24,924 nucleotides of DNA, from UHGV virus genome UHGV-0876952; one strand, given 5' to 3'. Positions 10,551 through 24,796 of the stretch are shown here, in pieces. The position numbers and the translations under genes are program-made. Origin of the DNA: a virus. Numbering within the stretch: position 1 is the stretch's first letter; each line of letters opens with the position of its first letter. The notes under the pieces are model-generated. The model worked only from the letters and a program-made list of their open reading frames with translations. It ran no database searches and was not told the origin of the DNA.

Positions 10551-10937
10551 ATGTCTGACAACAAGATTGAATTTATAGAAAGTCGCTATGCTGCTTTTAT
10601 CGCAGGGCTGATTGAATCCTCACCTATGAGTCAGGCCCAAATAGCCAGACTTATTGGTTATAAAAATGCCAACAACCTTTCTTTAATTAAAAGTGGCAAA
10701 ATTCCTTTGCCTATCGATAAGGTTCGTCCGTTGGCGCTGGCGCTGGGTATTGAGCCAAGTCGTCTTATGATGATGGTGCTGGAAGAACGCCAACCTGAAC
10801 TCGCAGCATTTTTATACAAAGAAGGCACCGCTCCTCTTAACGAGGACGAAAAACAGGTTCTTGCTGCATATAACGAGCGATTCGGTAAAGAGAAAGGCGC
10901 ATCACAAAAGGTTGTTGAGGCCATAAAGTCTCTATGA
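10551..10937 (+). CDS. XRE-family helix-turn-helix transcriptional regulator (repressor-like)
   Basis: 128-aa ORF; HTH signature SQAQIARLIGYKNANNLSLIKSGK; RBS AAAGG; 3' end overlaps the recombinase 3' end by 6 nt (convergent). Confidence 0.8.
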   Translation: MSDNKIEFIESRYAAFIAGLIESSPMSQAQIARLIGYKNANNLSLIKSGKIPLPIDKVRPLALALGIEPSRLMMMVLEERQPELAAFLYKEGTAPLNEDEKQVLAAYNERFGKEKGASQKVVEAIKSL

Positions 10938-12035
10938 AAAATTTACACGAATAAGCTCTGTTGATAGACGATCTCCCTTGAATTTGTGGTCAATTTCGTC
11001 TAAATCCGGTTGCTCTACGATTGATGCGATGTACGTCGAGAAACTTTCTAAGGCGTCTCGCATCTCGTCCATATAATCGTGCCGGTCGTAGACTCGATCT
11101 ATCCCCTCAAGACTGTGGTTCATGATTTTGCGTGATACCTCCTGGCTTATGCCTAATGCCGGGAAGTAACTACGCGCAGTACGGCGCAAGTCTCGGGGTG
11201 TAAATGGCTCAAGCTCCATCAGTTCTGGTCGTTCCAGGATACGACGTAATGCCTGGGCTATTGCCACTTTAGACATAGGAAGGTCTTTCCCGATTTTTTT
11301 ATTCGAAGGCACGAGCCACTGGCTGCCTTTACCGTATTCGAACAACTCTTCAATACATGTGCGCATTAATGTGCTTAAAGGCAGCGAATGCTCACGGGCA
11401 GATTTGTTCCTCTTGCCTTGATTCCAAACCCCACGCTTAAGATTGAACTCACTTTTTTTAGCCCGCAGTACTTCGTCAGGTCGTCTTGCGGATACAAGAC
11501 ACAGCCTGGCCGCCCATTTTGTACCAGCGCACACATTGAAGTAGTCCCATATATTCCAGAACACCCATACCTCTGCGTCGGTCAGCTTCCGCTCGCGAGG
11601 TGTGGGCTTTGCGCCACCGGCAACTTTGTTTAGTGACATATCGTTTAACGGTGACACGTCTATCATCCCCTGGAAGGCGCACCAGCTAAGGAACTGCTTC
11701 ATCAGAGAGAAAACGCGGCGGCCCATAACAATTTTGCCATCCAGTATTAGTGGGTTGACCAGTTGGTTCACCATGAACCTATTAATGTCACTTACTTTTA
11801 CATCGGCAATGTGCGGCAAAACATGTATCAAAATACAATGAACAGCGATCTCTGGCCGACGTCTTGTTATCAGCAGAGATAAGCGAGTGAATAACATGAA
11901 TGCGTCCGAGAATCTCATGTCATTGCTGACCTGCGAGATCATAACGGCCTGCATTTGAGATGCTCTTTCGAGATACTCAATCGCCTCTTTTGAGGTGTTC
12001 TCCGCAGCGCGTGCTCTGTCAAAGCTATTTTTCAT
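10932..12035 (-). CDS. int: tyrosine site-specific recombinase / phage integrase family
   Basis: 367-aa ORF with box I-like ARRPDEVL, box II-like PRDLRRTARS...MNHSLEG...VYDRHDY (R, H-x-x-R-like, H, Y catalytic pattern). Confidence 0.85.
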   Translation of the reverse strand: MKNSFDRARAAENTSKEAIEYLERASQMQAVMISQVSNDMRFSDAFMLFTRLSLLITRRRPEIAVHCILIHVLPHIADVKVSDINRFMVNQLVNPLILDGKIVMGRRVFSLMKQFLSWCAFQGMIDVSPLNDMSLNKVAGGAKPTPRERKLTDAEVWVFWNIWDYFNVCAGTKWAARLCLVSARRPDEVLRAKKSEFNLKRGVWNQGKRNKSAREHSLPLSTLMRTCIEELFEYGKGSQWLVPSNKKIGKDLPMSKVAIAQALRRILERPELMELEPFTPRDLRRTARSYFPALGISQEVSRKIMNHSLEGIDRVYDRHDYMDEMRDALESFSTYIASIVEQPDLDEIDHKFKGDRLSTELIRVNFS

Positions 12036-12133
12036 ATGACAATCACCGAGTTACGCCGATTCACTGTATAAGTAAACAGTATATTAGGCATAGATTCTTA
12101 TAGGATCAAGAGTAAAAGTAACTCATTTTCAGT

Positions 12134-12166
12134 AATGATTCCATACATAGTAGGTATGGAATCATT
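12134..12166. other. perfect 13-bp inverted repeat with 7-bp spacer (AATGATTCCATAC-ATAGTAG-GTATGGAATCATT); candidate recombinase core site
   Basis: Read directly; about 100 bp upstream of the recombinase start. The 13-7-13 architecture matches lox/FRT-type tyrosine recombinase targets. Confidence 0.5.
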
Positions 12167-12211
12167 TTGACGTTGTTTTTTGAATTTTAAGGGAAACGGG
12201 AGTGAGTTTGG

Positions 12212-12241
12212 TGGGTATAAAAACGGCTCCTGTGAGCCGTT
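12212..12241 (-). terminator. rho-independent terminator downstream of the glutaredoxin gene
   Basis: Hairpin AACGGCTC-CTGT-GAGCCGTT (12222-12241) followed on the minus strand by UUUUAUA, immediately after the stop at 12246. Confidence 0.55.
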
Positions 12242-12245
12242 AAAA

Positions 12246-12491
12246 TCAGAGGGTGCTGACGTATGCAGCCAGTTCTGTGTATCCGCCAATCGGTTGGCCA
12301 TCGATCAGCACTTGGGGGATAGTCTCTACCGGTTTACCAACAATTTCACTTAGTTTTTCCTTGTCGATACCGGCAGTGGTGATGTCGATGTACTCATAAT
12401 CACCGTAGCCATGTCCCTTTAGTTGCTTCGCCAGCTCGACCGCACGTTTGCAGTATGAGCAGTTATCTCGTCCGTAGATAGTGATCGTCAT
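12246..12491 (-). CDS. glutaredoxin (Grx/NrdH-like thiol-disulfide oxidoreductase)
   Basis: Start placed at ATG 12491 (MTITIYGRDNCSYCKRA...) with RBS GAGGTAACA; the track's longer 107-aa ORF has a non-Grx N-terminal extension. CSYC active site in a thioredoxin-fold context; 81 aa. Confidence 0.8.
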   Translation of the reverse strand: MTITIYGRDNCSYCKRAVELAKQLKGHGYGDYEYIDITTAGIDKEKLSEIVGKPVETIPQVLIDGQPIGGYTELAAYVSTL

Positions 12492-23238: not shown

Positions 23239-23300
23239 CCAGAGGTTTTGGTTTATCAGGTGCTGCACATTGGGGAAAAACAAAAGCGACTATTCGCTCA

Positions 23301-23708
23301 ATGCTTCTGCCGCGTGCTAACCGGTTACTGCAACTCGCCAGCGTAAAAAGAATGCTGGATGAAGCTCTCAGGAATGGGCAAAAGGTACTGGTTGTTGGCA
23401 ACTTTGTTTTCTGGTTTGAGGACAAAAATCAGGTAGGTTGGAGTGTTAAAGTTGCTAGCGAAAGCGAAACCACCTCAAGAGGCAATACGCTCTGGAAAGA
23501 AGGAACTATCATTTCAAAAAATCACGGTCGAATTGTCGTGCTGCCGTATACAAAAGAAAACGGTAAACATGTAAAAGGTTATACCAAGAATGCCCCTAAC
23601 GACGGCAACGCAATTCCGAGACATAAGGATGAGTATGTCGAGTTGCCCTTTGAAATTTTGGATGGTGACTTGATGTTCAGTCTGTTCGGTGAGCTTAACT
23701 ACGAATAG
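23301..23708 (+). CDS. hypothetical protein (plus-strand island gene 2)
   Basis: 135-aa ORF; weak RBS; no recognisable motif. Confidence 0.5.
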   Translation: MLLPRANRLLQLASVKRMLDEALRNGQKVLVVGNFVFWFEDKNQVGWSVKVASESETTSRGNTLWKEGTIISKNHGRIVVLPYTKENGKHVKGYTKNAPNDGNAIPRHKDEYVELPFEILDGDLMFSLFGELNYE

Positions 23709-23731
23709 CTTTCATAGAACGAAATATTTCT

Positions 23732-23757
23732 AAGGCTGTCCAATGCAGACCAGCCTT
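23732..23757. terminator. hairpin AAGGCTG-N12-CAGCCTT between convergent genes
   Basis: 7-bp inverted repeat between the plus-strand gene end (23708) and the parG-like gene end (23769). Confidence 0.3.
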
Positions 23758-23768
23758 AGAGATTTATA

Positions 23769-24128
23769 TCAACCTTTCTTCATTAACTCGCGTTTAATTT
23801 CATCGGTACGCATCGTGACATCGGCAGCGGTGATCGCCTCATTCAATTTCACGATGTCCTCGATTTCCTGCGGTGACTTCTCTGCCAGATGGAAAATGGC
23901 TGCTCGAATCACGTCAGAACGAGTGAACTTCTCGAAGCGAGGGATGAACTTCATCATCTCCAGCAGTTCGAAGTATTCGTCCTCCAGTGACATTGTGCGG
24001 CTTTTAATTTTCTCTTTGCCACGAGTCGGGCGTCCCTGTGGTCTGACTGGTTGGCGCAAAGGAGTTGTGTTCTTAGCCGGTGCATCAGGCTCTTTGCGCT
24101 TTGCTAGGTCACCCATTTTCATGGACAT
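23769..24128 (-). CDS. small partition/centromere-binding protein candidate (ParG-like, basic N-terminal tail, putative ribbon-helix-helix)
   Basis: 119-aa ORF; start overlaps the ParA stop (TAATG). Basic Arg/Lys/Pro-rich N-terminal tail, then a region compatible with beta-alpha-alpha (SLEDEYFELLEMMKF...RSDVIRAAIFHLAE). Confidence 0.55.
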   Translation of the reverse strand: MSMKMGDLAKRKEPDAPAKNTTPLRQPVRPQGRPTRGKEKIKSRTMSLEDEYFELLEMMKFIPRFEKFTRSDVIRAAIFHLAEKSPQEIEDIVKLNEAITAADVTMRTDEIKRELMKKG

Positions 24129-24796
24129 TATTCTTCTTCCTCCAGACTCAACAGATAATCTACAAATTCTTCAAACTCGGCTTCCGCCTTTTTGTCGCGC
24201 TCGCTACCGGTCATTTCAAAGATAGAACGACCAGACTCTTCCGCATCATCATAGACGTTGCGGTTATATAGATTGACTGGCGCAGACTCGATGCCAAACG
24301 TCTCAACAATCTCTTTAGCCGCCAGAATGCGAGACACTTGTGATGGCAAAGCCGGGCACTGGTTCATGACCGCGCGGACCTTCACTTTATCGTTTACATT
24401 GCGAACATTGTCGATAATAGGATCGATGTCACGTAAAGATTTCAAATCACGACGCTTAGGACGCAGCGGGATAATGATAACGTCAGCCATCAGCATCGCT
24501 TGTCGCTGAATTTCGGAGTCGAAGCCACCAGCATCTACCACTACAAACTCAGCTCTACCCTGAAGCGATTTTAGGTGCTTAATGATGTCATCCTGAACGT
24601 ATGCAAAAGGAATCAGCTCAAGGTCTTCGTTCTGTCGACGGTCTTCACACCAGCTCGTTGTCGTGCGCTGAATATCTATATCGGTAATATAAACCTTCTT
24701 CTTCTTTTTGACTTTCAGGCAAACGGCAATTTGCTGGGCAACGGTGGATTTGCCAGGCCCGCCCTTTGTGCCGCCAACCACAAAGATCTTGGTCAT
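24128..24796 (-). CDS. parA: ParA/ParF-family partition ATPase (deviant Walker A)
   Basis: 222-aa ORF; deviant Walker A GGTKGGPGKST at the N-terminus; size typical of type Ib ParA/ParF; RBS AAGGGAA. Confidence 0.85.
   Translation of the reverse strand: MTKIFVVGGTKGGPGKSTVAQQIAVCLKVKKKKKVYITDIDIQRTTTSWCEDRRQNEDLELIPFAYVQDDIIKHLKSLQGRAEFVVVDAGGFDSEIQRQAMLMADVIIIPLRPKRRDLKSLRDIDPIIDNVRNVNDKVKVRAVMNQCPALPSQVSRILAAKEIVETFGIESAPVNLYNRNVYDDAEESGRSIFEMTGSERDKKAEAEFEEFVDYLLSLEEEE

Follow-up and report, generated by a model that had tools for sequence, protein, structure and literature searches.

The window analysed here is the whole stretch of 24,924 nucleotides from the virus genome UHGV-0876952. 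By sequence comparison, it is a member of the SSU5 supergroup of phage-plasmids and belongs to the E. coli 'pSLy3' type. The SSU5 supergroup has been defined as phage-plasmids (PMC7969092), and the 'pSLy3' type comprises its E. coli members (PMC7969092, PMC12977533). We estimate at about 0.88 the probability that the window is the approximately 25-kb replication, recombination and maintenance region of such an element, i.e., of a temperate siphovirus that persists as prophage in the form of a circular, low-copy plasmid of ~110 kb. A previous reading made without database searches (hereafter, the sequence-only reading) had proposed a temperate phage kept as an extrachromosomal plasmid. This is borne out by the SSU5-supergroup identity of the window, by the gene modules of its close relative Escherichia phage Cyrano and the experiments on this phage, and by the plasmid-only location of the region. 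The element class is already known and well described, and the near-identical Cyrano has been experimentally characterised.

Relatives and plasmid location of the element

We built the gene map of the window (Table 1) from six-frame open reading frames (ORFs), tRNA searches (ARAGORN, Rfam) and domain searches (Pfam, PHROG, NCBIfam). The map is compact, with most genes on the minus strand, and these searches confirmed that the features listed in the sequence-only reading are all real and lie where it had placed them. With the full 25-kb window as query, megablast returned hundreds of relatives, the best match being the E. coli plasmid pLAU-OXA1 (98.8% identity across 98% of the window), followed by Cyrano (97.5% nucleotide identity across 87% of the window), Salmonella phage SSU5 (80.6% identity) and Klebsiella phage-plasmids (~78% identity). 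In PLSDB, 162 plasmids had a coverage of the window of 80% or more. With conserved synteny and 97-99% identity of the entire block in more than 160 sequenced plasmids and phages, the co-occurrence of its features is not a chance pattern. Besides, synteny with circular plasmids of ~110 kb extends over the full window.

Cyrano, which is plasmid pLF82 of E. coli LF82 (OV696614 / NC_011917) and falls in the pSLy3 group of the SSU5 supergroup, has the same gene order as the window, i.e., exonuclease, gp32-like single-strand DNA-binding protein (SSB), DnaE, CobS/CobT-like genes, helix-turn-helix (HTH) regulator, tyrosine recombinase (gene int), glutaredoxin (gene grx), tRNAs, ligase, primase, helicase, ParA partner and ParA. 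It also keeps the palindrome and the LexA box upstream of int and the conserved block upstream of parA. The two differ in that Cyrano carries hicAB ahead of dnaE and CYRAN_43 between the palindrome and grx, has three tRNAs instead of four (tRNA-Tyr is missing), and has CYRAN_30, on the opposite strand, in the place of the split phrog_22329 gene of the window.

The virion structural, packaging and lysis genes, for which a look at the complete replicon had been proposed, are located immediately beyond parA in Cyrano, pLAU-OXA1, SSU5, pJN2-26 and pMT1, and none of them lies inside the 25-kb window. According to its annotation, the Cyrano genome has a complete siphovirus module, with terminase, portal, capsid, tape-measure and tail genes through to the tail fibre. 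A holin-endolysin-Rz/Rz1 cassette begins ~2 kb beyond parA, and a KacAT toxin-antitoxin (TA) pair is present immediately upstream of parA. Elsewhere on the same replicon are the RepA initiator, RNR, ThyX, UvsW and an epsilon-like exonuclease. As a plasmid, Cyrano was shown to be present at 5.5 copies per chromosome; its DNase-protected genomes reached 32-fold over background, ciprofloxacin induction was 39-fold, and siphovirus particles of the expected size were observed (PMC9928086).

To locate this region in bacterial hosts, 5,426 complete E. coli genomes were surveyed. The int/HTH segment was detected in 254 places in 252 genomes, all plasmid-borne and mostly on plasmids of 95-116 kb, and the parA-partner cassette with its upstream block in 265 places in 264 genomes, all on plasmids as well. 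No chromosomal copy was found among the 254 int/HTH places or the 265 parA-cassette places, i.e., the chromosomal integration that the sequence-only reading had named as evidence against itself was not seen. SSU5-like phage-plasmids are present in ~5% of complete E. coli genomes. These counts agree with the description of these element types as 'exclusively extrachromosomal' (PMC9600943) and support a plasmid state for the family. For the family, the phage-plasmid reading is thus supported by comparative data, and the replicon of this particular copy extends beyond the view of the window.

Some points weigh against applying this reading to the present copy. Its topology, structural genes and inducibility lie outside the 25-kb window, no database record is identical to the window (best, 98.8%), and one pSLy3-type element, in E. 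coli 166F4, was not inducible, with no packaged DNA upon mitomycin C treatment (PMC9600943). Moreover, three genes are split. Compared with pLAU-OXA1, the window has single-base indels, most of them in homopolymers, at 8511, 9003, 13625 and 23129, with further ones at 2742, 14719, 15094, 18094 and 21581, and they divide the CobT-like gene into three ORFs and the phrog_18168 and phrog_22329 genes into two each, which may be due to sequencing error or to early decay of this copy. That this copy is a defective, plasmid-only descendant, kept by par, rep and TA genes and producing no virions, would agree with these frameshifts, with the result for 166F4 and with the existence of truncated relatives (e.g., a 72-kb record). 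We nevertheless consider it unlikely: most of the frameshifting indels are in homopolymers, as is typical of long-read error, and the core replication, par, int and HTH genes are all intact. In addition, Cyrano, at 97.5% identity, is inducible (PMC9928086), while the structural region of the present element is beyond view.

Overall, the window can be filed confidently as an ordinary member of a well-documented class. Some SSU5-like phage-plasmids carry resistance genes, which makes the class of applied interest (PMC9600943). Several details appear to be undescribed and represent leads rather than results: an orphan ParA partner with an erroneous toxin annotation, the lack of a classical centromere, a module of int, palindrome and LexA box at the border of the cargo, and a dispersed promoter/operator motif. 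These leads concern a poorly characterised maintenance region, and they are concrete and testable.

The recombinase, its palindrome and the adjacent regulator

The tyrosine recombinase (Int) had no match in the PDB, and its catalytic residues were identified by visual comparison with the family pattern. Across nine homologues (57-100% identity), R185, K211, R284 and Y316 are invariant, with R284 lying in the motif R281-x-x-R284; H307 is present in the window and is replaced by Gln in the most distant homologues, those of Chimaeribacter. A Pfam search detected no arm-binding domain, and no excisionase was seen in the HTH-int module.

Approximately 100 bp upstream of int is a 33-bp palindrome, AATGATTCCATAC-ATAGTAG-GTATGGAATCATT, with perfect 13-bp inverted arms and an asymmetric 7-bp spacer. 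It occurs 45-100 bp upstream of the int homologue in all the 13 loci known to carry it, seven of which come from the pattern scan described below, down to 57% Int identity. Its arms are invariant in these loci, while the spacers are variable and occur in both orientations (e.g., CTATTAA and TTAATAG). A pattern scan of one genome per species, covering 185,579 species, found the palindrome in seven contigs only, i.e., two of Kluyvera, three of Chimaeribacter, one of Buttiauxella and one of Y. pestis. The palindrome is also the right edge of the conserved int module, as the homology to Cyrano, Klebsiella and pBL12EC-1 breaks at 12167-12184.

Between the palindrome and int, we found an int promoter (TTGATC-17-TAATAT) followed by a LexA-box-like sequence (CTGT-N8-ACAG, 12062-12081). 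This sequence, CACTGTATAAGTAAACAGTA, has one mismatch to TACTGT-N8-ACAGTA, and a single match of this quality is not significant (reached in 42/100 shuffles). The layout of promoter and LexA box is, however, kept in E. coli, Klebsiella, Kluyvera and Y. pestis pMT1, while it is degenerate in Buttiauxella and absent in Chimaeribacter. The location of the box in the int promoter points to a putative SOS control, and int is probably SOS-controlled.

We propose that the palindrome is a candidate lox-like core site for multimer resolution, although an operator role or a function in the induction phase is also possible. The recombinase would use the neighbouring 13-7-13 palindrome as a simple site of the lox type to convert multimers into monomers, rather than insert the element into the chromosome. 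It had previously been suggested that the recombinase serves dimer resolution rather than integration. This putative function is consistent with an int that is never found integrated (254/254 places plasmid-borne in the complete E. coli genomes), with the lack of a detected arm-binding domain and with the palindrome beside int in 13 loci. More tentatively still, and with considerable doubt, the HTH-int module of the pSLy3, pKpn and pMT1 types might be an SOS-controlled lox-like module, in which a LexA-repressed recombinase and a 13-7-13 site at the border between backbone and cargo mediate both multimer resolution and cargo exchange between co-resident phage-plasmids. To our knowledge, phage-plasmids are usually described as lacking integrases, and the candidate resolution site and LexA box beside a recombinase are found here in an element group said to have none. 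No description of the 13-7-13 site, the LexA box or the role of the recombinase was found in the literature searched.

A similar arrangement is known for phage P1, whose ParA/ParB-parS partition system, Cre/loxP recombination and C1 repressor with dispersed operators are established (PMC7969092). P1 shares with the window the phage-plasmid lifestyle, dispersed regulatory motifs and tRNAs of its own, as well as a tyrosine recombinase and a simple palindrome of 13-bp arms and a short asymmetric spacer, which in P1 is the recombination site for resolving multimers and in the window a candidate for one. On the other hand, P1 is a myovirus unrelated to the siphovirus-type element of the window, the window Int is not Cre-like by sequence (no PDB match at E<0.01), and the spacer has 7 bp instead of the 8 bp of P1.

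Alternatively, Int could be a genuine integrase or function in the lytic cycle, perhaps being active only on induction or after infection. It might then cyclise terminally redundant DNA, as Cre/lox can do for P1, integrate occasionally into the chromosome, or exchange cargo between co-resident phage-plasmids. Such roles would fit with the LexA box that overlaps the int promoter and is kept across genera, with the resemblance of the Int C-terminal domain to P4-type integrases (NCBIfam PRK09692), with the homology between lineages that breaks exactly at the palindrome beside highly variable cargo, and with spacers that differ among lineages and occur in both orientations. We still regard them as rather unlikely in place of dimer resolution, considering that none of the 254 E. 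coli copies is chromosomal, in types described as 'exclusively extrachromosomal' (PMC9600943), and that neither an arm-binding domain nor an excisionase was seen in the module. Besides, the 33-bp site occurs only by int, on phage-plasmid-like contigs, among the 185,579 species genomes, so that no attB-like second site is evident.

The interpretation of the palindrome as a lox-like site is in turn weakened by two observations. The position of the box II His of Int is occupied by an invariant Arg (R281) in the nine homologues. Furthermore, the 13-mer GTATGGAATCATT has five exact copies in the window, a number that none of 100 shuffles reaches even allowing two mismatches. Two of them form the int palindrome, and the other three are single copies that share a longer flank, ATG[A/T]GATGTATGGAATCATT, and are syntenic in Klebsiella and in SSU5, which has no int; a lox-like role leaves these three unexplained. 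As for a role of the 13-mer as arm-type site or as HTH operator, SSU5 keeps the single copies without int or HTH, and the HTH promoter has another palindrome. The single copy at 6104-6116 lies inside the part of dnaE that encodes the PHP domain. We ruled out that it marks the true start of dnaE, given that in the long ORF the PHP domain already starts at residue 6.

The gene of the 128-aa HTH protein is convergent with int, and the 3' ends of the two genes overlap by 6 nt. This protein, in which no S24 peptidase domain was detected, is a candidate lysogeny repressor. Immediately after its promoter is the palindromic operator candidate GGTAAGCACTTACC (10506-10519), and the promoter and (G/A)GTAAGYACTTACC are kept in seven lineages, from loci of E. 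coli, Klebsiella, Kluyvera, Buttiauxella and Y. pestis. A palindrome directly after the promoter of the gene in seven lineages suggests autoregulation, in which the HTH protein would act via GGTAAGCACTTACC. The Cyrano homologue, CYRAN_45, carries the annotation of putative repressor, and its expression in the lysogen is 10x background (PMC9928086).

The distribution of this segment varies within the supergroup. SSU5 (NC_018843), the type member, is ~80% identical to the window over the replication and par genes, but it lacks the HTH-int-palindrome-cargo segment, and its CobT-like gene is directly followed by tRNA-Asn. A comparison of SSU5 12230-14811 with window 9990-14594 shows that SSU5 has only one of the four tRNAs and is without a 70-aa ORF, HTH, int, the palindrome and the cargo. 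That SSU5 is used as a lytic biocontrol phage may be connected with its having lost the putative repressor. Y. pestis pMT1, also of the SSU5 supergroup, has structural genes, RepA and CobS/CobT-like genes in common with the element of the window, and its HTH-int module has the palindrome and the LexA box as in the window.

The ParA cassette and its upstream block

ParA is a type Ib (short, ParF-like) partition ATPase, as judged from its sequence. It has a deviant Walker A motif, KGGPGKST, at residues 11-18 and is short, with no N-terminal HTH domain. All its Pfam matches (MipZ, AAA_31, CbiA, ParA) are over their cut-offs, and it matches the PHROG family of 'ParA-like partition protein' (phrog_164). 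The best solved relative is ParF of TP228 (4dzz), with an E-value of 1.2e-10 over the full length, and the match to NCBIfam ParA_partition (1.9e-33, 115.7 bits) is under the 180-bit equivalog cut-off.

The ATG of the 119-aa partner gene overlaps the parA stop codon as TAATG, making the two a translationally coupled pair. The partner family is tiny: a set of 5.8 billion proteins contains 25 clusters of it, and one of 1.84 billion proteins 18 representatives. Every relative at the loci examined is located immediately downstream of ParA, on a contig or replicon of ~100-110 kb. SSU5 and the Klebsiella and metagenomic relatives all keep the pair, even where partner identity falls to 50%; in SSU5 the partner is annotated as shorter (96 aa vs 119 aa). 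The alignment of the family shows a conserved N-terminal peptide (MGDLAKR), a disordered and variable basic linker, and an invariant core (IKSRTMS-EDE...FTRSDVIRAAI) followed by two helices. Residues ~41-82 of the partner are a probable ribbon-helix-helix (RHH) core. Weak RHH matches all fall on this core, both for the window protein (aCcr1, E-value of 2e-4) and for homologues (RHH_1, E-values of 0.005, 0.11 and 0.2).

The Cyrano homologue of the partner (30497-30856) is labelled 'RelE/ParE putative toxin' in the record and in the paper, and is counted among the morons. Searches of Pfam, PHROG and NCBIfam gave no support for a RelE/ParE toxin. The position of the partner, its translational coupling and the weak RHH signals suggest a partition adaptor rather than a toxin. 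We presume, from these sequence features, that it is a centromere-binding ParA adaptor, similar to ParG in position and architecture and outside the ParG family.

A close known system is ParF/ParG-parH of TP228, in which the ATPase is the nearest solved relative of the window ParA and a small partner gene also lies downstream. ParG has, like the window partner, a disordered N-terminal tail, followed in the window partner by the putative RHH core. Nevertheless, the window partner is longer (119 aa vs 76 aa for ParG) and has two extra C-terminal helices, and parH is an array of short repeats, of which none was found upstream of the window parA. No Pfam match to ParG (PF09274) was obtained for the partner, and alignment of the family to the TP228 ParG structure 1P94 by hhalign gave a probability of 0.1%. 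The sequence-only reading, which had described a ParF-type ATPase with a ParG-like partner, therefore holds for the ATPase and for the size, position and disordered N-terminus of the partner, while a sequence relation to ParG was not recovered. P1 differs in having type Ia partition, with a large ParA with HTH, ParB and parS downstream. pMT1 likewise lacks the type Ib ParA and partner (none found by tblastn) and has a large ParA (AAA ATPase) and ParB pair of the P1 type, virulence cargo and IS elements; the presence of a P1-type ParAB where the cassette is absent suggests functional replacement.

In the proposed mechanism, ParA and its coupled partner would segregate the plasmid copies in the prophage state. 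ParA-ATP would bind the nucleoid and the partner a site in cis, for which the near-invariant block directly in front of parA is the most likely location; the conserved N-terminal peptide of the partner would stimulate the ParA ATPase, resulting in a diffusion-ratchet of type Ib.

Directly upstream of parA, conservation is concentrated in a block of 107 nt with sharp boundaries, and the homology to all relatives stops at its outer end, 24903. Within it, 24831-24890 is 100% identical to SSU5 and 98% to Klebsiella pJN2-26, as opposed to 79% and 76% overall, and is one of only two 60-nt blocks of the window that are so conserved. The block, which is identical in SSU5, contains the palindromes TATAT-CAC-ATATA and GAAAACAAGTTGTTTC (24831-24846) and is a probable promoter/operator and a candidate partition site. 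In distant cassettes, with partners ~50-70% identical, only an TTAGGCTA element and the palindrome GAAAACAAnTTGTTTTC remain.

The second palindrome of the block, GAAAACAAGTTGTTTC, belongs to a dispersed family. The motif AAGAAAACAAnTTGTTT has 20 copies in Cyrano (up to two mismatches) and none in five shuffles, mostly 11-35 nt ahead of start codons; GCCTT(T/A)-N10-GATAAT stands before several of these copies. In the window, it is found at 10005-10021 (CobT-like gene), 21597-21613 (helicase gene) and 24832-24848 (parA). The family is also kept in SSU5, and pMT1 has seven copies even without the type Ib ParA and partner. The spacing to the start codons recalls activator-dependent promoters of the T4 middle type. 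We rejected GAAAACAAGTTGTTTC as a par-specific centromere or omega-like site for the partner, because ~17 good copies stand before unrelated Cyrano genes and pMT1 keeps them; the palindrome rather has the appearance of a promoter/operator element used throughout the phage. This leaves 24847-24903, the par-specific half of the block, as the centromere candidate.

Several of these results speak against a partition function of the cassette as proposed. Only 128 nt upstream of parA are inside the window, and the 320-nt intergenic region of pLAU-OXA1 was searched as well. The centromere-like repeats that had been anticipated upstream of parA were not found: repeat and tandem-repeat searches revealed no direct-repeat array or iterons in the 107-nt block, elsewhere upstream of parA in the window, or in the intergenic region of pLAU-OXA1. 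Of the two small palindromes present, one is not par-specific, as its genome-wide family is found in pMT1 too, an element without the cassette. Moreover, the RHH assignment of the partner is weak, with matches that are below threshold and an AF2 monomer model of low confidence (pLDDT 63.6). Finally, Cyrano has a second MinD/ParA-like gene, CYRAN_99, elsewhere on a replicon with several TA systems, and the cassette may thus not be the sole partition system.

It could accordingly be argued that ParA and its partner form a positioning or regulatory module of the ParA/MinD type, and that inheritance relies on the other ParA-like gene, on copy number or on TA addiction. The lack of an iterated centromere near the cassette, the ~5.5 copies, several TA systems and CYRAN_99 of Cyrano, and a partner in which no centromere-binding domain is recognised at curated Pfam thresholds would all be compatible with this. 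We consider it very unlikely, since the best structural relative over the full length is a plasmid partition ATPase (ParF), the translationally coupled pair is conserved as such to 50% partner identity, the upstream block is ultra-conserved, the cassette is always plasmid-borne, and pMT1, which is devoid of the cassette, has a P1-type ParAB in apparent functional replacement.

Replication genes, tRNAs and cargo

The presence of phage-type replication proteins and tRNAs alongside the partition genes was confirmed, with a primase, a DnaB-like helicase, a ligase and four tRNAs in the range 10551-24796 to which the sequence-only reading referred. Its description of this range as holding a full replisome was overstated: DnaE, SSB and the exonuclease are encoded to the left of this range, and no clamp or clamp loader was found in the window. 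DnaE, primase, DnaB-like helicase, ligase, gp32-like SSB and exonuclease would constitute the phage's own replication and recombination machinery, and the tRNAs would supplement translation. Initiation in the plasmid mode would depend on a RepA gene outside the window, as in Cyrano, where RepA and the epsilon-like exonuclease are encoded elsewhere on the replicon.

Table 1. Features of the 24,924-nt window, with positions, strand and supporting evidence.
Feature	Position	Strand	Evidence or remark
LAGLIDADG homing-endonuclease gene (part)	1-127		Window start
5'-3' exonuclease	155-1150	-	Pfam 5_3_exonuc_N 1e-23
gp32-like single-strand DNA-binding protein	1160-2188	-	Pfam gp32 1.7e-66
UvsY-position gene	2306-2761		
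DNA polymerase III alpha (DnaE), N-terminal PHP domain	2863-6369	-	Pfam DNA_pol3_alpha 1.3e-73, finger, HHH_6, PHP
AAA_5 (CobS-like) ATPase	6550-7785		
CobT/VWA protein	7881-9989		Three ORFs here through splitting
Promoter TTTACA-16-TAATAT and operator candidate	10477-10520	+	Promoter scan
HTH regulator, 128 aa	10551-10937	+	phrog_8 ('transcriptional regulator'), E 6.6e-12; Pfam HTH_19, E 0.0015, below cut-off
Tyrosine recombinase, 367 aa	10932-12035	-	Pfam Phage_integrase 6.8e-10 (above cut-off), Phage_int_M; phrog_1 (integrase) 1e-46
int promoter region with LexA-box-like sequence	12036-12133	-	Read from sequence
33-bp palindrome, 13-7-13	12134-12166		
13-mer GTATGGAATCATT, five copies	6104-6116(-), 12134-12146(-), 12154-12166(+), 14864-14876(+), 15875-15887(+)		
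Glutaredoxin (GrxA-like)	12246-12500	-	Pfam Glutaredoxin 6.6e-11; annotation of pLAU-OXA1 and Cyrano; ORF as listed extends to 12569, ~246 nt in relatives' annotation
Low-GC (~31%) cargo gene, phrog_18168	12666-13926	+	Two ORFs through homopolymer frameshift
tRNA-Ser(tga), Thr(tgt), Tyr(gta), Asn(gtt)	14119-14669	-	ARAGORN, Rfam
Several tiny ORFs	Between tRNA cluster and ligase		
ATP-dependent DNA ligase	16258-17580	-	Pfam DNA_ligase_A_M 5.8e-13
Two genes without assigned function	Between ligase and primase		
DnaG-type primase	18973-20226	-	Pfam DNAG_N, Toprim_2 just below cut-offs; primase in relatives' annotation, product there shorter (371 aa)
DnaB-like replicative helicase	20236-21576	-	Pfam DnaB_C 3.6e-13
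249-aa gene without assigned function	21621-22370		
Split gene, phrog_22329	22636-23708	+	
ParA partner, 119 aa	23769-24128	-	Start overlaps parA stop
ParA, 222 aa	24128-24796	-	Pfam MipZ, AAA_31, CbiA, ParA above cut-off; phrog_164 4e-51
Conserved block upstream of parA	24797-24903	-	

The tRNAs are internal phage genes, which are found in SSU5, P1/P7 and D6 too. A tyrosine recombinase adjoining a repressor-like gene, with tRNA genes nearby, is also the arrangement of many integrated prophages, but the idea that the window stems from a chromosomally integrated prophage with classical att recombination is effectively refuted for the family by the internal nature of these tRNAs, by the absence of chromosomal int or parA copies in the 5,426 complete E. 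coli genomes and by the synteny with circular plasmids of ~110 kb. Within the tRNA region, 14096-14528 shares 93% identity with phage vB_EcoM-Ro157c2YLVW and 89% with the tRNA regions of P7 and D6 (P1 group), and this resemblance to the unrelated P7 and D6 suggests an exchange of the tRNA cassette between phage-plasmid families.

Very stable long hairpins, with 15-20-bp stems around 40-80 nt, flank the tRNA cluster at 14039-14116, 14925-15065 and 15130-15250. For the two that were tested, the folding z-score was -5.5; the stems share CACA[A/G]CGTTGAG, and a Klebsiella relative has similar hairpins. A role as processing signals, stable RNAs or origin-like structure is conceivable. The second ultra-conserved non-coding block of the window, 15251-15330, is 96% identical to SSU5 and pJN2-26 (~76-79% overall) and is located within a gene-free stretch of 780 nt between the tRNA cluster and the operon of small ORFs and ligase. 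A structured RNA was rejected for this block, as its folding z-score was ~-0.5 on both strands and Rfam returned only a match at chance level.

The region 12167-14593, which begins exactly at the right arm of the palindrome, is hypervariable cargo, with a different content in every lineage examined. In the window, it consists of grx and the low-GC gene, and in Cyrano it includes CYRAN_43, which is highly expressed in the lysogen. Other E. coli plasmids have YafO toxin or colicin-immunity genes at this location, and those of Klebsiella PhoH, Gp49 and others. The low-GC phrog_18168 gene is intact in pLAU-OXA1 (420 aa), and no Pfam or PADLOC match was found for it. The cargo genes and the CobS/CobT-like pair were also considered as a defence system, for which PADLOC gave nothing convincing.

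Two further segments of the window differ from its closest relatives. In dnaE, 3936-4174 (~240 nt) does not align to pLAU-OXA1, and 4174-4340 aligns with many mismatches and compensating indels, pointing to a mosaic recombinant patch inside the gene. At the left end, the LAGLIDADG gene corresponds to an intein-like insertion that interrupts a phage recA/uvsX-like gene in relatives, including pLF82/Cyrano, and its junction with the exonuclease gene in the window is unlike those of pLAU-OXA1 and Cyrano.

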